Of a stretch of 64,000 nt of DNA, positions 4,910 through 43,904 are shown piece by piece; position 1 is the stretch's first letter; each line of letters opens with the position of its first letter. The position numbers and the translations under genes are program-made. The stretch comes from Eledone cirrhosa (Eukaryota), in contig OZ024743.1 in assembly GCA_964016885.1 (NCBI GenBank), forward strand, positions 42,470,001 to 42,534,000. The letters are read 5' to 3'. Below the pieces are notes generated by a model. The model was not told where the DNA came from. It made no database searches and saw nothing but the letters and a program-made list of their open reading frames with translations.

Positions 4910-4989
<80 letters not shown>

Positions 4990-5042
4990 AATTAATAAAA
5001 TAATGAATAAACAAAGAAACAGTTCCTTATATTAAAAAAATT

Positions 5043-5182
5043 CATCATTTTACGATCGTTTCTAGGATATATATGTGTTAGAGTTGGTATGCATATTCTA
5101 TAGATCTATGTACAATATGTATACAAACTATCAGAGGGAATATACATACCTACACATATATATGCTGTCTTCAGAAATAATG
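5043..5182 (-). ncRNA. Type I hammerhead ribozyme with ~105-nt stem II domain
   Basis: Minus strand: stem I CATTATTT/AAATGATG, core CTGAAGA, stem II AGCATATATATGTGT...ACACATATATATCCT, GAAAC-GATC-GTA (palindromic stem III). Confidence 0.8.
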
Positions 5183-5566
5183 ATATTTGTTTATTGAAAA
5201 AACAAAGATTCAATACAATAGGTCTGTTTGGGAACAGGTTTTGAATTGACCAATAGAGAGATAGTGAGGGTCAAGGTAGTAATATAGTAGTAGAAGAACC
5301 TTAAATTATGGGTAGAGGAAGGTAGATTTCAGTTTTGGATGGAAAAGAATATTATGAATGAAGGATTATTTTAGGGAAGAAATAGGTCTTATGCTGAAAT
5401 AATTGTATTTGTTCATTGAATAAAACCAACAAAGATCTAATATATTCTGTTTGTTTGGTAAGAGGTTTAGAATTAACCAATAGAAAGTTAATAATTGGCC
5501 AAATGGTAAAATAGTAGTAATTGAAGCTTATTTTAGGGGTGAAAATAGGTCAGGTGGTCAGTAAAA

Positions 5567-5766
5567 NNNNNNNNNNNNNNNNNNNNNNNNNNNNNNNNNN
5601 NNNNNNNNNNNNNNNNNNNNNNNNNNNNNNNNNNNNNNNNNNNNNNNNNNNNNNNNNNNNNNNNNNNNNNNNNNNNNNNNNNNNNNNNNNNNNNNNNNNN
5701 NNNNNNNNNNNNNNNNNNNNNNNNNNNNNNNNNNNNNNNNNNNNNNNNNNNNNNNNNNNNNNNNNN
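5567..5766. other. Assembly gap (200 N)
   Basis: Run of N. Confidence 1.
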
Positions 5767-6440
5767 ATGTAATTAATACATACAGGGATACAAGTATAGT
5801 CCGTATGCCAGTGCGGTTCAATAGCAAGTTAATAAATTAACAAGCCAGAACATATAAAATCAAGGGAGTGTAAACACAGAAAATATCTTTAAAAATAATA
5901 AATAATTTAATCATTTATTATTACTTTTTAAGATATTTTCTGTGTTTACACTCCCTTGATTTTATATGTTCTGGCTTGTTAATTTATCTAACTTGCTATT
6001 GAACCGCACTGGCATACGGACTATACTTGTATCCCTGTATGTATTAATTACATATATGACACATACTTTTATTATTATTCCCCCCAATGATAGAGACACC
6101 TTCAGTGGTTCGTATAGCTGCTGTTTTTAGTAGCATTAGATTAACCTGTCCTACGTGCTTTACACATTGCACGCGTTCCTAACCATAACTGATTCATTCT
6201 GAGGCAGTTTTGTATGGCGCTAGTTTGTAATTTGAACTCGGGAATTTTATATTCTCCGAGAGAGAACAGCCTTCTGACGATGACCTCTTTATCAATGGAT
6301 ATCCACTTGGATTGTCTATATAAGTGGTATCTGAAACCGCAGTAAAGGCACATATAGTGAGTAAGGGAATATTTTGGAATTTAATTATTTAATATTATTT
6401 TTAAAGATATTTTCTGTGTTTACACTCCCTTGATTTTACA
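5767..6440 (+). mobile_element. Non-coding HHR-bearing element with 5' fold-back palindrome (5767-6052) and partial tandem repeat
   Basis: Near-perfect inverted repeat centred ~5910; AAGATATTTTCTGTGTTTACACTCCCTTGATTTTA recurs at ~5930 and ~6405; ends at (TA)n. Confidence 0.7.
6269..6349 (+). ncRNA. Type I hammerhead ribozyme
   Basis: Stem I GCCTT/AAGGC, CTGACGA, stem II containing CCACTT/AAGTGG, GAAAC-CGCA-GTA. Confidence 0.7.
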
Positions 6441-16939: not shown

Positions 16940-18423
16940 GAGTTCAACAATGAATATTGGACCAGAGCTGATACCTCTAACAACTTCGACATCACAATGG
17001 GAGCATCCGATTCATCCCAATTGTCAGATTTAATTGGTATCTTTATTTTGAACTCTTTGAGTCGGAAAATTCCTCAACTTCGCGGTGGAATTTATCGTGA
17101 CGATGGACTCTTTACTATCTTAAATTGCAACATAGTTAACCTTAATATTATTAAGAACAATATACGTAATCTCTTTAACCAACATAACCTAAAAATTGAA
17201 TTTGATAACAGCATCAAACTAGCTAATTTCTTGGATGTATCTCTTAATCTTGACACTGGCCTATATTACCCTTACCATAAAAACAATGAGAACCTAAATT
17301 ATGTTAATTTTAAATCTAACCACCCTATTAATATTAAGAATGCTATAGTTAGTAATATTGGAAAAAGAATATCTAACCTATCTTCTAATAAAAACATCTT
17401 TGATGCTAACGCCAATTACTATAATAACGCGCTTTCTAAAGCCGGCTATCCTGAAAAATCAAATATAATAAAGAAACAAATTCTAGAAGATCTTACAGTA
17501 GAATAATTAATCATGATCATTCCAATAACTTTAATAAAAGACCTAAATACAAAAACATAATCTGGTATAATGCTCCTTTCTCCATCTCTATTAATAATAA
17601 TATTCCCAAATTATTCTTTAGTGCCTTAATTAAATGCTTCCCTCCCTCACATATCTATAGTAAAATATTTAACAAACACACTATAACATTTTCCTATTCG
17701 ACATCCTCCAACATTTCCAACATTATCTCTAAACACAACAATAAAATAATAAATACTAAATCTCTTCCTTCCAACACTGAATATCATAATAATAGTAATA
17801 GTACTCCCGACGTCATTGTAAACTCTAGGCTAATTTCTTCAAACCCAAATACAACATCAAACACAACTTCGCTAAATGTTCTTAATCCCATTCTAAATCA
17901 AGAAACTATTATTCCTATCGCAAATAACTTCTCCAATCCAATTCCTTCTATAGATAACACTAGGTCACTCGTTAATAATCTCTCTAATCGCAATTGCAAT
18001 TCCCCTGCTAAAAATAAATGTCCTCTCAACAACCATTATCTTGATAAAAACTTAATCTATGAATGTAAAGTTATAACTGACACCAATTCCTTCACCTTTT
18101 TGGCTCCACTTCCACCTCCTTTAAAGCTCGTCTTTATAATCATCATTCGTCTTTTAAATACCAACTTAAAAGAACCAACACGGCTCTCTCAGAACTCATA
18201 TGGTCCTTGAAAGACAAAAATATTAAATATAACATCTCTTGGAAAAAGGTTTCTTCTGCTGCTCCATACTTGAACAGTTCTCTATCCAAGACTTGCAATC
18301 TCTTGTCTAAATGAAAAATTTACCATTATATCTAATTTAGATTCTATAATAAATAGACGCACTGACTTGTTTTCTCTCTGCTTGCATAAATTCCACAGAA
18401 CATTCCATAAATTATACAGCTAA
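16940..18423 (+). pseudogene. 5'-truncated Penelope-like element ORF (RT + C-terminal GIY-YIG), Nematis-like
   Basis: FDITMGASDSSQLSDLIG, GIYRDDGL, FLDVSLNL, SNHP, IIWYNAPFS, CN...CPLN..LIYEC, FKARLYNH..SF, LSELIWSLKD, CNL/CLNEK; at least three frameshifts. Clade assignment is by motif recall. Confidence 0.85.
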
Positions 18424-18871
18424 TATCCTAAACTTTATCAATTCAGAATCCTTTTCTCAAAGGCACATATATATATATATATACTTCTTTAAAAATATAC
18501 CCATCTTTCTACCTTATTTAAAAGTTATTTATTATACATTATATAATACTTGTTACTCATTCTATATCATTCCTATTTATCACTTCCATTTCTTACTTTT
18601 CCTTTTCTTTTCTTTTTCTTTTAATTTCTAACCCCTAATCTGTACCTTTTCTCACTATGCCTAACATAGAAACAATTATTACACAATACAATATATTCTT
18701 ACTTCATATCACCTTGAAAAAATCCTTCGTAAACATAAACATTTTTTTGACGTTAGATTATTCATCCTCAATTCATTATTTTTTTCTCACTTTCATGTTT
18801 CATCCTATCTTCTACTTTTTTCACAATATATCCTTACTTACATTACTATTACTATTTTTAATAATACATAT

Positions 18872-19030
18872 CAACATTTTCTTTCCATCGCACATATTAT
18901 TAAACCCTTAAATATTATTCTTAATACATATTAACATTTTCTTTCCATCGCACATATTATTAAACCCTTAAATATTATTCTTAATACATATTAACAATTT
19001 CTTTTCATCGCACATATTATTAAACCCTTC
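18872..19030. repeat. ~60-bp tandem repeat (about 2.6 copies) in the PLE 3' region
   Basis: TTTCCATCGCACATATTATTAAACCCTT repeated at ~60-bp spacing. Confidence 0.85.
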
Positions 19031-19386
19031 AATATACAAACCTTAACTTTACATTATTTTTCTCTTCGTTAATTTTCAAATTCTTTTAATTTATACATTA
19101 TCTTCCGACGGTTTTTCAACCTCTCTATGTAAAACAATATATTTTTCTCAGTTATAAAAGCTATCTCTCTCTCTCTCTATCACCCATCTCTCCTATCTCA
19201 TCCTTCCTCATTATACTCCTCCCCCTCCAATGTTTACTCTCATCTCCTCCTCTTTTTCATCCTTTCCACCACCCCCCTCAAATTTTTTTTTCCACAATAT
19301 CACACATCAATCTAAAACAACTTTTCATATGTTGATCTAAAACTGCACTATCCACAAGTGTTTTTAACCTTCATATCATATCTTCC

Positions 19387-19457
19387 TATTTTATCTGATG
19401 AAAACACAAATGTTATTACATGATGATATTTGTTTTTGAAATGCGCATAAGAAAATA
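19387..19457 (+). ncRNA. Type I hammerhead ribozyme in PLE 3' end
   Basis: Stem I TATTTTAT/AGAAAATA, CTGATGA, 16-position stem II AAACACAAATGTTATT/GATGATATTTGTTTTT (one mismatch), GAAAT-GCGC-ATA. Confidence 0.85.
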
Positions 19458-19602
19458 CATGGAACTCTTTTAACCATCTTTTGATCTTATATATTATGTA
19501 TACTCCAGTCCTACAAACTGTAGAGTGCTTCTTATCCGATATCTGCATTGCTTTATTGTACTACAATAAAACTTACCTCCTACATATATATATATATATA
19601 TA

Positions 19603-20060
19603 TATTGTTATACTTGGGGAGGGTCATATTTGTGTAATATTGCCAGAATCAATAACAGAACACAATCACTGTTTGGTTGGTTTTCGCTTTTCGCTTCTGT
19701 GTCTTTTATATCGGTAATCTAATGTATTCGGTCCTCAATGTTGCCATTGACTGACCAACGGTCAAAAATAATACAGATACAATATAGACACAAACACATA
19801 TATATAGTTTATCAAAGTTCTTTCGTTGCACATCTGCAGATGTGCAACGAAAGAACTTTGATAAACTATATATATGTGTTTGTGTCTATATTGTATCTGT
19901 ATTATTTTTGACCGTTGGTTAGTCAATGGCCACATTGAGGACCGAATACATTAGATTACCGATATAAAAGACACAGAAGCGAAAAGCGAAAACCAACCAA
20001 ACAGTGAGTGTGTTCTGTTATTAATTCTGGCAATATTACACAAATATGACCCTCACCAAG

Positions 20061-20066
<6 letters not shown>
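19603..20066. mobile_element. Palindromic derivative of the Naiad-like terminal repeat, in (TA)n
   Basis: ~230-bp near-perfect arms centred on CTGCAG (19834-19839); arms match 31756-31990 and 33260-33498. Confidence 0.9.
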
Positions 20067-20101
<35 letters not shown>

Positions 20102-21632: not shown

Positions 21633-21810
21633 TGGTAAACGGAATAGAAAATGCTGACAAATTGTTCACAGTTGAAAAATGGTTTAATTAGGAATAAAAT
21701 AGTATTAGTGATTGTATGGGTTAGTACTCAGTTGTGGTTTTAAGTTTTTAAGTTTTTACCGGTTGCGCATTTCTAAATGCTTTTCAAAAATAATTTTGAG
21801 ATATCAACTT

Positions 21811-23635
21811 AGCGCTCTCCACTTTGGAAAACGAAACATACTACGAAAAGGCTGAACACTACAATCAACAGAAAATTATGAGAAACCTAAAAACTCTAAT
21901 CAACCAATACAACTGAAGGACTCACTAACAAGGAATTCAGCTTCATCACAGACTTCACAAGTAAATCCAGCCTCTTCTACGGTATCCCTAAAGTATATAA
22001 AAGCGAATCAATACGTAAGGCATGCAAGGAAGCCACAGACATAGTCATCAATGTCCCCTCACCCAATGATCTCAAATTAAGACCTATAATAGCAGGCCCC
22101 GCTTGCAAAACGCACCGTCTTAGCATCTTCATTGATACCCTTCTCAAACCCTTCTTCAAACACATCAAAAGCTATATAAGGGACGACCTAGATATGCTCA
22201 ATCACCTCCCTAATATGCCACTTTCTGAACAAACCCTACTAGTGATGTTCGATGTAGTCAACCTATACGCCAACATCCCCCACAACCTAGAAATAGAAGC
22301 TATCCAATTCTGGCTGGATAATTTCCACAATGAACTCCCACAACGCATCAAAAAAGAATTCGTGATAGAGGGACTCAAATTTATCTTGGAGAACAATTAC
22401 TTCGTTTTCAATAACAAACCCTACAGGCAGAAATCTGGGACCGCTATGGGAACGAAAACAGCCCCCACTTATGCCAACCTAGTCATGGGATACCTGGAAA
22501 TCACCCTCTACACTAAAGTCCTAAACAAATTTGGAAACACCCTCCACTTACACATTGAAAGGAACTGGAAGAGATATCTAGATGACTGCTTCATCCTTTG
22601 GCACGAAAACATCGAAAAACTTAAAGAATTTCACACCCTTATAAATGGGCTCAACACGAATATTAACTTCACGATGGAATACAGCCATCAACAACTCCCC
22701 TTCCTCGACATCCTCATTAAGATCCATAACAAAAAAATAGAAACAGACATATACTACAAGCCCACATACTCCAAGCAATATCTCCCCTTCAACTCTTGCC
22801 ACCCTAGACACGTTAAAATTAATATTCCCTACAACTTAGCCAAGAGAATCTGTACTATAGTCTCCAATAAAAACATCTGCTACTTACGGCTACAAGAACT
22901 AAAGGACACACTCATAGGCAGGGACTACCCTGCATCACTAATTGACAATGGAATCCAACGTGCCCTAAAACTCAGTACCCAGGACCTTAGACACCCTAAA
23001 GTAAATCAACCGAAACTAAAAGCTCTTCCATAAATCTCCACACACAACCCTCTCAACAATGAGGCCTTTGACACCATCCTCCAGAACATCCATGTGTTGA
23101 AAAAGGACCATAGAATGAACCAAATTCTACGAACACACGATATCATAAAGAGCAAAAGACAATACAAGTCAATGAAAAACATCCCAACACATGCCAAAGT
23201 ACTGCCAACCACAACAACGAAACCCACAGTAAAAAAATGCGATAGACCCAACTGTGGCATTTGCATCAACCTAATAGAGGGTTCGGAATTCTATTTCAAA
23301 GATGGACAACGTTTTATAGTAAAACACAATTTCACATGTGCATCGGAAAATCTAATATATGTATTAACTTGCTCAAGTTGTCGAGAACAATACATAGGGC
23401 AGACCAAAAACAGCCTCCACCAACGCATGACTGTCCATAGATCCCAAATTAAAATACGGGAATACAGGAAAATACCACTGAGTGAACACATTGATACCTG
23501 TGCCGCCCCAAATCATCCCAACTTCAGAATCTTTCCCCTCTACAAATTTAAAGATAAATCACCCACACCCAGCGCATCAGCAAGGTATCTTACTTCATTA
23601 ACAAATACGGACTCCGTCTAAACACTTCTCCCTAA
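21811..23635 (+). pseudogene. PLE reverse transcriptase + GIY-YIG endonuclease (disrupted)
   Basis: FYGIPKVYK, LRPIIAG, FDVVNLYANIP, GTAMGT..APTYANL, RYLDD, LPFLD, SCHP; linker CDRPNCGIC; NLIYVLTC..C..QYIGQT..R...H; stop at 23031 and frameshifts. Confidence 0.93.
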
Positions 23636-23764
23636 GACGAACCCACAACATACACACGTTAACATACATACCTACATCAGCACACATCTCCACCCACATA
23701 TAAACACAATGACATACGTAAACACACATGCTCTAGGGCGCAACACAAAAAATATATGTGTATA

Positions 23765-23820
<56 letters not shown>

Positions 23821-23968
23821 ATATATGTATGTGTATATATGTGTAGTGAATATCATTTCACACCTTTTATTGTTAAGATTTTTGATGTTCTATTAAGAGA
23901 ACCGATTTTACTGAAAAAATCGAATAATGTACACCATTTTACCAGGGGGAAAAAAATACTGGTCCACC

Positions 23969-24002
<34 letters not shown>

Positions 24003-24169
24003 TAGACACGCGTACATTAACATACAAAGAGACTTATACACACACACACACACACGCACTTCTCCGTATAAGACAAAAGCTGAAAAATATCTTTTGACAT
24101 GCTAAAATACCCCCCATTGCTTTCAGACACATTCTTACTGACCATCCCTGCTACCACGAATTACTCTGC

Positions 24170-24214
<45 letters not shown>

Positions 24215-24334
24215 ACACACACACAATTATGTTAATAGCCATTTGACACACATCCCTGCTAACCATTATCACAACATCGAACACCTTTCTACTACTACAC
24301 ACACACACATATTTGTTGTGAAAGAGTCATTTCT

Positions 24335-24580
24335 CAATCTTGGCGCAAAACCAATTTTTTATTCATATGACCTCTACCGACCAATCAAAATTGCTTTGAC
24401 CACAAGAATTTTTGCAAACACCAAATAGCGTTGGAGCCACTTTTTTAACATAAAAACAGTCTTGGCGCAAAATCAATTATTTACATTCACATGACCTCTA
24501 CCGACCAATCAAAATTGTTTTGACCACAAGAATTTTTGCAACACCAAAGTAACGCTGGAGCCACCTTTTTAACATAAAAA
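24335..24580. repeat. ~122-bp tandem duplication in the PLE 3' region
   Basis: TCTTGGCGCAAAA...TGACCTCTACCGACCAATCAAAATTG...GGAGCCAC occurs twice. Confidence 0.85.
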
Positions 24581-24847
24581 TAGGTAGAATTCCCAAAACT
24601 AATCAGATCAGTGCAAACAACACGGACACTCTATCTCAAAATTATTTTTGAAAAGCATTTAGAAATGCGCAAGCGGTAAAAAGTTAAAAACTTAAAACCA
24701 CAATTGAATACTAACCCATACAATCACTAATACTCTTTTATTCCTAATTAAACCATTTTTCAACTGTGAACAATTTATCAGCATTTTCTATTCCGTTTAC
24801 CAATATATAATAACTTGTGTGTTACACCTCTATTCTATTAACTATAT

Positions 24848-25700: not shown

Positions 25701-25783
25701 ACTTTCCTGATGACGGAATGATTTTCCTTAAGTTTCTTCGGAAAATATATTTACTCCATTCCAGAAACTAATTAGTTGGAAGT
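25701..25783 (+). ncRNA. Type I hammerhead ribozyme
   Basis: Stem I ACTTTC/GGAAGT, CTGATGA, C-GGAATG...CATTCC-A stem II, GAAAC-TAATTA-GTT. Confidence 0.85.
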
Positions 25784-28542: not shown

Positions 28543-29775
28543 TACGTAATTATTTATAGCTCTTATTACATTAAACATAGATGTGTTTATTGTGATATTT
28601 TTATAAAGGATGCCACAGAATATATGATAGATAATGATTACAATATTTTTGAGTAACAACTCTAGTCCCACACTTTTGAAGTTTTATCATAACATTCTTT
28701 GGCTCTTTTGGGCTTGCGCATTTCTCATGTCTATATATTATACATAAGAATTTTCTGAAAACTACGCAACAAATATTTTAAGGAAAATATTTTTAATATT
28801 TTGTTCAGTCATTTATTATCAGAGGTTTCCGTCAACAATAATTCAAATGAAATTTGAGAGGTAATTAAGAATTGTGTTTAATGATGCCGTTCTGGGGTAA
28901 TAAGTGAAGGAATTGAACTTCAGTTGCATGCTTAGTACACACGGATATTAACCGATAAAGGCATCAAACTATAATGATAACATAAAACATTTAAGGGTGT
29001 GACATTAAAAAGATGCCAGAAATTATTCTACCTACTTCATTTTCATCAATCTTTAATAATTATAGAGAAAAAGAGGGTTATTTGCCGCGATAATTTGCCA
29101 AGAGAAAACTACCTGACGCACAATGGATGTATAATGAATTTTGCGAATCTATTGCCAAATAATTAAGGATTTCGTGGCATTAACCTGGTTAAATCTTAAC
29201 AATCATATTTTTCAAGTAAAGCAAGTAGAGAACAATCCCACTCAACATATTTCTGTTTGCCAACAATTTATTCAATTATACACAAAAAGCTGTTAATAAC
29301 TTAATCAGGTAATTTTATGGACTTTTAGCAATTTTCTCCGATGTCTTCCTTTATTATTTATGCTGAACTTCAAAAAAACAAATATTACACCGGAAATAAC
29401 ATTTTCTATTTTGACTGGTTTATTTCAAACGAAATTTCAAACAACTTATGCCTTCATCGATCTATGAATCATGATTTTCCCATCTTAAAAATAGAACTAA
29501 CAAACTTGTTTTTCTCTTAAAATTTAATGACATATCATTCTTTATTTACACTTGATATTATAATGAAATTATTCTCCTTAGTGAACATGTTTCTGTAGAA
29601 ATAAATCATTCAATTTTGAAGTCCTTTGTTTTCATAATGAATGATAAGTACGTAATTAGCAAACGAAGAGCTTATTACACGATTATATTTGTATTCAACC
29701 GCAACAATATGCTAAACCACTTCAGCAAACATACGTAATACGTTTTATTTGATTAGGATAAATATGTTTAAATAT

Positions 29776-33806: not shown

Positions 33807-33983
33807 GTATCCATTGTAAGTTGTGGGGTCTATTCTGTATGAAGAACTCAATGTAATCCATATGTTGAAAATGTTGTAGGTTAAGATAAATCTCAGAATA
33901 CAATAAAACATAAAAAGGAAAACAGAGTCATTATATAAGTTAAAACAATGAAATAAAAAATCAAGTCATTAGAGATATACTTC

Positions 33984-34119
33984 ACTGCTTTATGATCGTT
34001 TCTAGATGGTGTTAATACATTGTATCTATACTCAGTTATTGATCTATGTAAGTTTACAAACTATCAGATAGAGAGAATATTTACTTACATGCTTATCACC
34101 AGCTGTTTTCAAAAGCAAT
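33984..34119 (-). ncRNA. Hammerhead ribozyme, U3-A8 core, ~103-nt stem II
   Basis: Stem I ATTGCTT/AAGCAGT, TTGAAAA, C-AGCTGGTG...CACCATCT-A, GAAAC-GATC-ATA. Confidence 0.7.
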
Positions 34120-34425
34120 AATAATTTTACTCAAAATTAGTACCATGTCCATATTTGGAGGTAGTTGAAGAACTAACGAATCAAATTGTTTTTTTCATAT
34201 GGTATACAGATGAAAAGTAATACACTTTAGTTGAAGTCATGAACCTTTGAAAGGAATGGTTTCCTTGATGTTACCTTAGATCTCTCTACGAATACTTATC
34301 AACCATACCACAAACCTAATAAGAATCTACATTATGTACATTCACGATCTAACCACCCAGGCTCTATACTCAAGAACTTAGTATATAACATTTCTCTTAG
34401 ACTTTCTATATTATCTTCCACACAC

Positions 34426-35945: not shown

Positions 35946-35988
35946 ACGTTGCTGACGATAGCTAATAAGCTTGAAACTAGTACAGCGT
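35946..35988 (+). ncRNA. Minimal type I hammerhead ribozyme (43 nt)
   Basis: ACGTTG-CTGACGA-T-AGCT AATA AGCT-T-GAAAC-TA-GTA-CAGCGT. Confidence 0.85.
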
Positions 35989-37957: not shown

Positions 37958-38052
<95 letters not shown>

Positions 38053-38155
38053 ATATATGTATATATGTGTATATGTGTATGTATGTATGTATGTATGTAT
38101 GTATGTATGTGTGTGTGTGTCTATATGAATGTACATGTACATATGTATGTATGTA

Positions 38156-38204
<49 letters not shown>

Positions 38205-38933
38205 ATATGTGTATGTATCTGTATATGTATATGTATATATGCGGGATTAGATGTGTATGCGTGGATATAGATATATATGGATATGTATATATATGATTTT
38301 ATGCATACGTGTATGTATATTTTGGTTAGATATCAATATAACTGTACCTCTCTTTATATGTGGTGTGAATATGTGCACTTTGTAAACTATGAAATTTATG
38401 TGTTTTAACTATGCCAAAATGTACTTATCTGATTTCGATTGTTTATGCATAAACATACTTAGTAATATTTTAGAGCGTATAATATGTTATATTATACTGA
38501 GTGCAATTTAACACACTGTACTACATGCTGTTGGTTAAGTTGTATATTACCGCATTACTATATCACATTATCTTATTATAATTTTCATATTTTAATATAC
38601 TATCTTTCGTAGCCATAACATTAATTTATATTCATCTTAAAACTCAATACAACACTAATCACCATTTATTTTGACATTCCTTTTAAATTCACTATAAAAG
38701 ATACAATCAACTATCAGTTTGACAATCCCCTTCCATCCTCGTAGATTTTTATGCCATTTCTACTAACACCTTTCAACCATTCCTTTCAAAGGGACATGAC
38801 CTTAACTAAAGTGTATTACTTTTCATCTTAACACCATATGAAAAAAAACTATTTGATTCGTTAGTTCTTCAACTACCTACAAATAGGGACATGATACTAA
38901 TTCTGAGTAAAATTATTATTGAATAAAATTATT

Positions 38934-39069
38934 ATTGCTTTTGAAAACAGCTGGTGATATGCATGTAAATAAATATTCCCTCTATCTGATAGTTTATAAA
39001 CTTACATAGATCAATAACTGAGTATAGATACAATGTATTATCACCATCTAGAAACGATCGTAAACTAGT
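38934..39069 (+). ncRNA. Hammerhead ribozyme, U3-A8 core, long stem II
   Basis: ATTGCTT-TTGAAAA-CAGCTGGTGATA...TATCACCATCTA-GAAAC-GATC-GTA-AACTAGT. Confidence 0.7.
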
Positions 39070-39421
39070 GAAGTATATCTCTAATAACTTGATTTTTTAT
39101 TTCATTGTTTTAACTCATATATATTCTTTCTTTATCTCTCCCTTTCTTTCTCCACTTTTCTCTCTCTCGGTTTTTCTCTCTCTACGTCTTTTTTCCTTCT
39201 CCGTAACACAACGACTTACTAAGATAAACAAATCTACTATCCCTGATATCTTCCAAAAGTAACGGTTGCATTTTGAAATGGAATGTCAATATTTATTTAT
39301 AAAACTGGTATATATTGTATTTTGTCTGATGAAAGCATACCATAATTTAACATGGTATCCTTGAAATATGTATAATAAAATAGATATGGTTTTATAAATA
39401 TAGTTTCCATTTGTTAATATC

Positions 39422-39544: not shown

Positions 39545-39646
39545 TATTTACGACCGTTTCATTGGTAAGTGCAACCTTATATTGCTATACTGCAAATAGC
39601 AGCCACTCAATTATAATTGTTGTTCACAGTCCAAATATTCAAAATA
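39545..39646 (-). ncRNA. Hammerhead copy of 43803-43904, core decayed to TTGAATA
   Basis: Near-identical reverse complement of 43803-43904. Confidence 0.55.
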
Positions 39647-40107: not shown

Positions 40108-40189
40108 ACTCCAACTAATTAGTTTCTGTAATGGGATAAAGATAGTTACGTAATATAACTGTCGAGAATTCATTACGTCATCAGAGAGT
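40108..40189 (-). ncRNA. Type I hammerhead ribozyme
   Basis: ACTCT-CTGATGA-C-GTAATG...CATTAC-A-GAAAC-TAATTA-GTT-GGAGT. Confidence 0.85.
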
Positions 40190-40644: not shown

Positions 40645-40726
40645 ACTCTAACTAATTAGTTTCTGTAATGGGATAAAGATAGTTACGTAATATAACTGTC
40701 GAGAATTCATTACGTCATCAGGGAGT
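40645..40726 (-). ncRNA. Type I hammerhead ribozyme
   Basis: ACTCC-CTGATGA-C-GTAATG...CATTAC-A-GAAAC-TAATTA-GTT-AGAGT (first stem I pair mismatched). Confidence 0.75.
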
Positions 40727-41889: not shown

Positions 41890-42010
41890 TTATTGACACG
41901 TGTTTCAATAACAGTTACATAACCTGAAAACAGCTGCTATCTACAAAGTATTAGTTATGCAGACATTCAATATTTCAATGTTATTATCAACTGTCATTTC
42001 ATCAGAATAA
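41890..42010 (-). ncRNA. Type I hammerhead ribozyme with ~92-nt stem II domain
   Basis: TTATT-CTGATGA-AATGACAGTT...AACTGTTATT-GAAAC-ACGT-GTC-AATAA. Confidence 0.85.
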
Positions 42011-42530
42011 TTTTACTGAGGACCTGTTTGGTTTTTATAGAGAATATTAGGAGGGAGGGGTGAAGTTGTTAGAAGAATAGTTGAGGGAGTGGTTTTTTGA
42101 TAGCAGTGAGAATTTTTGGTGGCAGTGAGTAATTAGATTCCCATCTGTTGTTTTGACATTTTTATAGAATATATTATTGGTTATTTTTCTAAATCTATAG
42201 AAGGATTAGAGATAGTAAAGATATGCATGGTTGGTTTTGTGTTTGCACTTAATTAACATTCAACTTAAATTTTTCTTTCAAGTGTACGTATCCTTTCGCC
42301 CACGCATTTACACACAAACATATATGCACACCTCTACAAAATACATATACTCACATACACATACTTACATGCTCATACATACATATACACATGCACACAT
42401 ATATATAAACATATATATACACATATATACATGTACATACATACGCATCTATGTGTATACATTTTCATACTCAACTTATCTTTATATACACACGTATAGA
42501 CACACACATATATACATACATACTTCAGTC

Positions 42531-42579
<49 letters not shown>

Positions 42580-42866
42580 ACTTTAATACATGAATACACT
42601 TACATCCAACTATACAGATCAAACATATATATATATATTTACTTATTTATATGCATTTTCACATATATATACATACATATGGTCGCTTTTGGACACATTC
42701 ATTATAGCATATCTGCACCTATTCTCATCAGCATATATTTCCATTATTAGTGTGGTAATTTAAGGTTATTAATATACATATATATGTTGAGAAGAGATTG
42801 TTTTTATATTTTTCTAACTAGATTGACGTTTATATAGTTGGGGGATGTTCCTCTTTTATGTAATAT

Positions 42867-43157
42867 TCAGCTTGTAGTGGGAAAAAGGGTTTTAGTTCGG
42901 TGACGGCAGAATAATGTTCGTTCAATTCTGTTATTCAGCAATTTCTTCTTGTGTGTGATTATGTAATAAATCTCAAGATTACACAATTTGCAGAAATTTT
43001 GGCTCCTGGAAAAGCTTTGTGTTTTAGCTAATTTCTCCCATTTTAGGGTAAACTTTTGATCGCTATCCCTGAGCGTCCAAGCTTTTTCTGCTAAAGTTGT
43101 TACATTTCTTTGGCTCTGGTGTTTTATTGAGTAAGAATGCCTATATAATCGAGATTT
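42867..43157 (-). pseudogene. C-terminal GIY-YIG fragment of a Nematis-like PLE
   Basis: KSRLYRHSYSIKHQSQRNVTTLAEKAWTLRD..FTLKWEKL...FCKLCNLE...LLNNRIE...CRHR*, homologous to the 18.1-18.4 kb translation; its 3' region holds the 41890 HHR. Not in the ORF track. Confidence 0.8.
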
Positions 43158-43802: not shown

Positions 43803-43904
43803 TATTTTGAAAATTTGGACTGTGAACAACAATTATAATTGAGTGGCTGCTATTTGCAGTATAGCAATATAAGGTTGCACTTACCAATGAAACGGTCGTA
43901 AATA
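43803..43904 (+). ncRNA. Hammerhead ribozyme, U3-A8 core, ~75-nt stem II
   Basis: TATT-TTGAAAA-T-TTGG...CCAA-T-GAAAC-GGTC-GTA-AATA. Confidence 0.65.

Follow-up and report, generated by a model that had tools for sequence, protein, structure and literature searches.

The hammerhead ribozymes carried by Penelope-like retrotransposons (PLEs) show poor cleavage on their own, and in one case they need the protein of the element in order to cut. For those with a palindromic stem III a dimer model has been proposed (in parts of PMC4209133 and PMC6765202). The PLE hammerhead of Anolis cleaves only with the protein of the element, the template being uncut RNA, and insertion in vitro persists when most of this hammerhead is deleted (PMC11167929, in part). 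Hydra-clade PLEs are marked by DKT and RWK motifs, a CxCX5C linker, CxxC and CxH motifs around E and N, a C-terminal endonuclease lacking a CCHH motif, and insertion into (TA)n; their length of <3 kb is given as a tendency, not a rule (PMC8557442, in part).

The window analysed here is a stretch of 64,000 nt from Eledone cirrhosa (contig OZ024743.1, positions 42,470,001 to 42,534,000). It contains, at 5042-5183 on the minus strand, a hammerhead motif of type I whose stem III is palindromic and of the dimer type, and whose CUGAAGA and GAAAC are separated by 105 nt. The original prediction had placed here a hammerhead of a PLE family, with a 105-nt insert folding as a long interrupted hairpin. 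Both parts are borne out, since the motif sits in the terminal repeat (pLTR) of a Hydra-clade PLE and the insert folds as a single interrupted rod (z -3.46; 1/200 shuffles as low). The strand had been left unstated; all parts lie on the minus strand. The Hydra clade of the host element, the recurrence of long stems in unrelated families and a downstream hairpin that can compete with stem I go beyond that prediction. Judged from its sequence, the motif very probably is a hammerhead of a Hydra PLE whose long stem II is real and under selection. It belongs to a known ribozyme class and is new in structure, with a stem II of about 100 nt whose function we infer.

The hammerhead and its host element

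The features of the window copy are as follows.

5175..5183, minus strand: 5' strand of stem I, 9 bp with 5042-5050, covarying between lineages
5168..5174, minus strand: hammerhead core CUGAAGA (C3...A9), from the sequence and core counts per subfamily
5063..5167, minus strand: 105-nt stem II rod, from folds, hairpin counts and covariation
within 5063..5167, minus strand: base of the rod (C.A, A-U, G-C, C.C), from folds
5163-5152/5078-5067, minus strand: helix P2a of the rod, from folds
5150-5138/5098-5086, minus strand: helix P2b of the rod, from folds
5103..5133, minus strand: near-invariant apical module of the rod, from genomic matches and per-copy mismatch counts
5051..5062, minus strand: GAAACGAUCGUA, that is GAAA, the stem III palindrome ACGAUCGU and the cleavage triplet GUA, from the sequence
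after 5051, minus strand: predicted cut site, from the cleavage triplet GUA
5042..5050, minus strand: 3' strand of stem I, 9 bp with 5175-5183
4998..5007, minus strand: near-copy of the stem I 5' strand, predicted partner of 5050-5041 that would displace stem I, from pair probabilities
4987..5566, minus strand: solo pLTR, truncated at its 5' side, from a Hydra-clade PLE of subfamily A1, with an N gap at 5567 and an end in (TA)n

The core presents CUGANGA, GAAA and a UH cleavage triplet in order, and the flanking stems I and II both covary. The tertiary core pair covaries as well (C3-G8 versus U3-A8): C3-G8 is found in lineages A and C and U3-A8 in 15/15 B1 copies, a result partly preset by the copy finder, which demanded one or the other. 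The canonical G10.1-C11.1 pair is replaced by a Y.A mismatch in all six subfamilies, a position also mismatched in other Hydra hammerheads (PMC8557442, File S2) and in metagenome loci. A terminal loop II close to the core is impossible here, and the conserved C.C mismatch in the stem II base, at position 4, is a candidate for the tertiary contact with stem I. Default searches had been expected to miss the family, and they do. Rfam at gathering score gave no match in the whole window, where the short hammerheads were missed as well, and on four loci no hammerhead family appears among 85 weak matches up to E 5.

The window pLTR is 97% identical over 588 nt to that of the full-length tandem element L036. 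Where two hammerhead copies lie 3.8-5 kb apart, the locus contains ORFs for RT and a C-terminal endonuclease. The copies are direct repeats around the ORF in L034 and L036 and inverted pairs elsewhere, and both layouts place the hammerhead in the pLTR. The repeat spacing, 3.8 kb in L034 and 4.2 kb in L036, exceeds the <3 kb general for the clade. By eye, the proteins of L036 and L032 carry HSDKT, RWR (a variant of RWK), CNCRNKANC (CxCX5C), CRLC (CxxC) and CNH (CxH), and no CCHH motif was seen in the endonuclease. Most of the copy ends listed run into (TA)n, again by eye. Pfam gave no match to the element's ORFs; the protein has 160 database relatives, the top ones including one from Argonauta hians, and no relatives were found in the viral contigs searched. 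The ORF starts 430-475 nt past the hammerhead core, after 6-10 upstream ATGs, and stretches of 521 aa and 379 aa are free of internal stops. CCAAT-like boxes stand upstream of the hammerhead at 5250 and 5477, one in each unit of a 73% direct repeat (5174-5313 versus 5396-5540). Near-perfect inverted repeats with arms of 200-250 bp lie outside the PLE copies, at 19600-20090 and 5767-6050.

Exact patterns ending in CTAG match 4,258 times in the 3.0-Gb genome and those ending in CCAG 851 times, together more than 5,000 copies, with 0 matches in either control. The 123 distinct copies compared below, collected with exact patterns plus a permissive filter on part of the tip, sort into subfamilies A1, A2, A3, B1, B2 and C (lineages A, B and C), with inserts of 97-114 nt. 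The same stem III with an insert of 6-34 nt matches 48 times genome-wide; deletion versions with a short stem account for 6 or 7 of these by eye, all single copies that may be post-insertion accidents. Contigs from four public runs of one study, of unrecorded kind, also contain the element.

Covariation of the stem II rod and conservation of its tip

The original prediction had named two homologues in the window, and both are present, with 103-nt inserts.

33991..34112, minus strand: lineage B homologue with U3-A8 core, 103-nt insert and AUA triplet, in an inverted pLTR beside an RT fragment
34243-34400, plus strand: RT fragment adjoining this inverted pLTR
38941..39062, plus strand: lineage B homologue with U3-A8 core and 103-nt insert, in a pLTR at about 37959-39124

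They carry CAGC...CTA, TGGTGATA/TATCACCA and the inner motif as described, and they are of the same family, but their core is the U3-A8 form UUGAAAA in both, not CUGAAGA. The claim that their outer helix had changed and stayed paired holds overall, except for one mismatch in the 34 kb copy. This copy, with AUA at the cleavage triplet and a fold no better than shuffles (z -0.72), is probably decayed; the 39 kb copy has one mismatch in stem I and z -1.71. With up to one mismatch, GAAACGATCGTA is found five times in the window against 0.14 expected.

Single hairpins are folded by 118/123 copies, with medians of 30-37 bp (a rod of ~33 bp in lineages A, B and C) and a stability of about -33 kcal/mol. 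The insert has z < -2 in 13/13 A1, 28/29 A2, 6/7 A3, 4/8 B1, 2/4 B2 and 7/9 C copies (60 of the 70 tested). Pairs were counted across lineages ungapped from the core, because MAFFT misregisters the outer helix between lineages. So counted, the stem base reads Y.A, R-Y, G-C, C.C and then helix, its four basal letters being partly fixed by the search patterns. The covariation claimed earlier is upheld by the collected genomic copies: between lineages A, B and C, seven of nine basal pairs change on both sides and remain paired, and at core-anchored positions 1, 2 and 4-10, 80-100% of cells are paired in each subfamily. The majority pairs in A/B/C are AU/UA/GC, UA/GC/GC, AU/GU/GC and UA/UA/UA at positions 4-7, and AU/GC/AU, UA/AU/GC and AU/UA/UA at positions 8-10, while position 1 switches from AU to GC within A and within B. 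A lineage's own arms pair at -16 to -28 kcal/mol, and arms swapped between lineages at -9 to -17. The lineage-level permutation product over nine columns, treated as independent, is 2.3e-4. Within lineage A, 95.2% of cells pair and 17 change on both sides (0/500 shuffles as high); only five pairs covary there (31/500 as high). In slid-register controls much pairing survives: a slide of 2 leaves 0.50-0.85 in the outer helix of lineage A, which is (AT)n-like, and a slide of -3 leaves 0.74-0.84 in B and 0.40-0.61 in C. Copying of one arm from the other could produce many pair changes in one event. Stem I covaries too: in B, UA becomes CG and AU becomes GC, and position 5 steps through UA, UG and CG.

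Between A, B2 and C the endonucleases share 59-68% identity, and DNA upstream of the hammerhead aligns between B and A or C at shuffle level (0.53-0.59 identity; shuffled 0.53-0.55). The inserts have an identity of 0.66-0.69 between A and B and between B and C, as does the tail 60-190 nt downstream. The simplest reading of these identities would be selection on the insert and on this downstream stretch.

The apical module, UGAUADUUUGUA...UACAUAGAUC, consists of 21 nt almost invariant around a variable loop. It has 7,841 exact matches in the genome (control 0), and 115 of the 123 copies, a set partly filtered on it, keep both halves with at most one mismatch, around a spacer of 3-18 nt and at 32-39 nt from the core. 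Its fold, a GAU/AUC helix of 3 bp, a 4x3 internal loop ADUU/UAG and a UGUA/UACA helix of 4-7 bp, is a prediction only, because nothing in the tip covaries; the inner motif, being invariant, is conserved yet yields no covariation evidence. Invariant halves that include unpaired loop bases, together with a variable spacer, fit an RNA hairpin rather than a DNA site.

Some known RNA modules were compared with the tip. A SECIS element has a UGA/GA quartet under a helix of 11-12 bp and serves in-frame UGA codons; a kink-turn has GA pairs next to a 3-nt bulge and a C-stem. The former is ruled out by the tip helix of 4-7 bp, by Watson-Crick pairing in GAU/AUC and by the uninterrupted ORF stretches, the latter by the same Watson-Crick pairs and by the lack of an adjacent C-stem. 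Kissing-loop dimerisation is ruled out by eye, the apical loops not being consistently palindromic.

A competing hairpin and possible roles of the rod

Stem III, ACGAUCGU, is a full palindrome, and its energies match the dimer model: -10.0 kcal/mol for the 8-bp self-duplex versus +2.4 when folded as a monomer hairpin. Some 35-50 nt downstream, a near-copy of the stem I 5' strand can pair with the stem I 3' strand. In the window copy with its tail, the predicted probability is about 1.0 for this competing pair and 0.0 for stem I; without the tail, that of stem I is 0.69-0.95. The competing hairpin is predicted to dominate in 58 of 73 A copies, 11 of 22 B, 6 of 20 C, 0 of 28 G and 3 of 29 from metagenomes. 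Compared with shuffles, it reaches significance in 27 of 73 A copies, 12 of 22 B, 5 of 20 C, 12 of 26 F/H, 3 of 28 G and 2 of 29 from metagenomes. On these folding predictions, the hairpin would be real in the A/B/C lineage and not general. Among 92 copies, 47 end 40-80 nt past the cleavage site, just after the competing hairpin, and 20 end at 170-225 nt; a further 19 give ambiguous ends, since the reference there passes into TA-rich sequence. By analogy with Anolis, these ends would fit templating on uncut RNA from two start sites. A block, GGATTACATTGAGTTCTTCAT, conserved in A, B and C (L036:4705-4760, minus strand; window about 33815-33865, minus strand), lies shortly ahead of the second copy-end site, at ~150 nt beyond the point of cleavage; it is a candidate RT recognition element.

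A mechanism can be proposed for this type I hammerhead of a Hydra-clade PLE terminal repeat, with its ~100-nt stem II rod kept paired across three lineages. The rod is predicted to keep the two core halves together across 105 nt, and the palindromic stem III is predicted to make cleavage dependent on two copies, as in other PLE hammerheads. The hairpin 35-50 nt downstream would take the stem I 3' strand and leave the full RNA mostly uncut. A protein on the tip may then help to assemble a transposition particle on uncut RNA, whose copying would start about 60 or 200 nt beyond the cleavage site. The same protein may also help to choose between the cutting and non-cutting folds. The original prediction had suggested that the insert may be a protein-binding or regulatory domain, which stays a conjecture drawn from the invariant tip. 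Protein binding at the tip, with the RT-endonuclease of the element itself as the probable partner, is a tentative reading to which we give slightly less than even chances. It is favoured because the halves are invariant, unpaired bases included, and because the insert is kept beyond the upstream DNA; the Anolis precedent and the positions of the copy ends also speak for it. The absence of covariation in the tip, the long stems of family G and others that lack the tip sequence, the Y.A mismatch in place of G10.1-C11.1, the uneven occurrence of the competing hairpin and the dispensability in vitro of most of the Anolis hammerhead weigh against it. The whole proposal is possible rather than probable: an RNA domain of ~100 nt on hammerheads of several families, in about 20,000 copies unseen by present descriptors, whose tip in the A/B/C family would bind the RT-endonuclease and form, with the anti-stem-I hairpin, a switch between cutting and template.

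The rod could also have arisen by tolerated growth, stem II lengthening by hairpin expansion with selection only on the pairing that holds the core, so that the extension would have no function of its own. Insert lengths in this genome form a near continuum of 12-107 nt in unrelated sequences, short stems are the majority, and related Hydra families carry inserts of 36, 88-92 and 99-114 nt. Mere tolerance fits poorly with a 21-nt tip kept together with its unpaired bases while the endonucleases have diverged to 59-68% identity and the upstream alignment is partly lost, and with a rod whose stability is far beyond what short stems need. Short-stem deletion versions also occur only as single copies, though possibly through post-insertion accidents, and we regard such growth as a doubtful but serious account. 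It is unlikely that the tip is conserved as an internal DNA promoter element, the hairpin being selected only so that the ribozyme folds around it. The tip sequence TGATA resembles a GATA site, and the two CCAAT-like boxes lie upstream. PLEs do carry internal promoters in the pLTR (PMC8557442 and PMC6765202, in part), but complementary tip halves, a spacing of 3-18 nt and a core distance of 32-39 nt suit an RNA better.

An intron of the 5' UTR might use GTATGT, GTAAGT or GTAGGT within the insert as its donor, splicing away the ribozyme and the upstream AUGs. Donor-like hexamers occur in all lineages, YAG is found at G12 and in the tip, and Penelope and Chlamys have 5' UTR introns, that of Penelope abutting the hammerhead (PMC4209133 and PMC8557442, in part). 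The donors of B and of A/C align at different positions, however, and a tip intron would span just 42-47 nt, its branch point lying some 19 nt away from the donor. A spliced tip-intron junction is absent from all genomic copies and none of the 48 short-insert matches has the G12 junction, both weak points since PLEs retain introns. At the candidate introns, the contigs of the four runs, of unrecorded kind, contain no junction; in one contig of low depth, 104 nt are skipped and the letters in between are unknown. Neither bears on splicing or expression. Splicing is quite improbable on this balance. Last, the rod might serve host ADAR or Dicer-type enzymes as a double-stranded substrate, or shield the 3' end after cleavage. 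It is AU-rich, imperfect and, at 30-37 bp, of the right size; it would terminate the upstream cleavage product, and several families are alike in rod shape and not in sequence. This is nevertheless very unlikely, as single-copy changes in the insert show no A-to-G excess (A>G 22, T>C 26), which rules out fixation of ADAR edits, no Rfam miRNA matches the insert, and the invariant tip is left unexplained.

If the boldest reading, a switch controlled by a protein on the tip, is true, the PLE hammerhead, long without an explanation, would gain a role that can be put to the test. Because this natural variant combines a long covarying arm with an invariant tip and a competing hairpin, binding and switching can each be addressed by defined mutations.

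Other stem lengths and comparison with known systems

Short-stem hammerheads are the majority in this genome: a loose pattern with an insert of 8-34 nt has 55,234 matches (control 6,286), one of 35-60 nt with a 10-nt stem III 16,198 (control 731), and one of 80-110 nt 29,035 (control 4,983), part of this last excess coming from satellite or from short hammerheads with another GAAAC downstream. About ten more families carry inserts of 47-105 nt. Family G, of the Hydra clade, has an intact ORF of 765 aa (L122), 2,760 pattern matches and rods of 88-92 nt with z < -2 in 14/14; it has no sequence in common with the A/B/C family (insert identity A1-G 0.50 versus 0.49 shuffled). Its copy in the window lies downstream of an endonuclease fragment.

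41895..42005, minus strand: Hydra family G hammerhead with a 92-nt rod, palindrome ACACGUGU and unrelated sequence
43157-42882, minus strand: endonuclease fragment upstream of the family G hammerhead

Family G (window 41895-43157, minus strand; L122) is young. Other hammerheads of the window include that of Hydra family J (16940-19502, plus strand), at 19395-19449, with a 36-nt stem II hairpin and the palindrome AUGCGCAU; family J is also nested inside locus L033. The very abundant family K (25707-25777, plus strand; 40113-40184 and 40650-40721, minus strand), with a stem II of 50-51 nt and the palindrome ACUAAUUAGU, stands in tandem units of ~540 bp, like non-LTR retrozymes. An inverted pair of U3-A8-type hammerheads with a 75-nt stem II (43807-43900, plus strand; 39549-39642, minus strand, the latter with a core change) lies 4.2 kb apart around other elements, and a short hammerhead with a 14-nt stem II insert is found at 35952-35982 (plus strand). 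A PLE at 21640-24800 has Pfam RT and GIY-YIG matches, a Neptune-like CX4CXXC linker, inverted pLTRs, one in-frame TAA (23031-23033) and short hammerhead variants with GCAA in place of GAAA (21757-21787 and 24648-24678). The older family F/H (L255-L283) has a stem II of about 102 nt and the stem III of the A/B/C family; its pattern has 201 matches, some of them A copies. At least some F/H copies (e.g. L267) share the C.C mismatch at position 4 of stem II and the downstream competing hairpin. As single old copies they fold weakly (z < -2 in 6/29, two of the 29 being B-type inserts that were picked at a wrong core). No ORF link was found for families F, H, E, I, K or a 20-nt family.

A match is present in 40 of 77 metagenome Hydra loci, 48 matches having inserts of 10-30 nt; two long ones are judged to be chance (reversed control: one). 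Together with the published Hydra hammerheads, this confirms that stem II is short in relatives, as had been supposed. In the RT tree, which took in 32 of the 77 loci, a clade (100/98) unites A, G, family J and five database proteins, and the 32 short-stem metagenome elements fall outside it; the row ownB (L033) says nothing on lineage B, because it is a nested family J copy with a 36-nt insert. PLEs in general can do without a long stem, since the other long stems lack the tip and short stems are more numerous. Searches limited to a short stem II undercount such ribozymes.

No PLE hammerhead with a stem II of ~100 nt is described in the literature searched (including PMC10085705, PMC7229834, PMC5680766 and part of bioRxiv 10.64898/2026.07.22.740005), subscription papers, Repbase and Dfam being outside its scope. 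The median of 30-37 bp lies far from a short helix II of up to about 8 bp. This is not a plain dimer-type PLE hammerhead, because the short helix II and G10.1-C11.1 features both fail. The Clec2 hammerhead carries its insertion in loop I, not in stem II. This discontinuous ribozyme (PMC6765202, in part) is likewise a natural hammerhead with a large insertion, but of several hundred nt, in a mammalian 3' UTR and not in a retroelement. PLE-X of Selaginella and the 'HHR_half_core' Naiads, some of them from cephalopods, have core halves split by about 35-50 nt; these long-loop cores belong to other clades and are about half the length, and the part of PMC8557442 concerned describes no long covarying rods. 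The Anolis PAc hammerhead (Frangione et al. 2024, PMC11167929, in part) is alike in that two downstream starts of reverse transcription define copy ends; PAc is of the Poseidon clade, with a short stem II overlapping the ORF start, whereas the ORF here begins 430-475 nt past the core, and protein assistance, demonstrated for PAc, would be only an extrapolation here. Minimal PLE hammerheads (Cervera and de la Pena 2014, PMC4209133, in part) share the dimer-type palindromic stem III, the U3-A8 variant, the prevalence of solo truncated copies and the inverted pairs, but their enlarged helix II has 6-8 bp on a conserved G10.1-C11.1, against a rod of 30-37 bp on Y.A, and the 9-bp stem I also sets the present motif apart. 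The hammerheads of the Hydra clade (Craig et al. 2021, PMC8557442, File S2) are alike in being type I, in a pLTR downstream of an ORF with C-terminal endonuclease, in their short near-palindromic stem III, in the frequent base mismatch of stem II and in their (TA)n targets. The published ones, including Hydra-1_oBim, have stems of 3-7 bp and loops of 3-10 nt in units of <3 kb, whereas the elements described here have inserts of 97-114 nt in units of about 3.8-4.2 kb.
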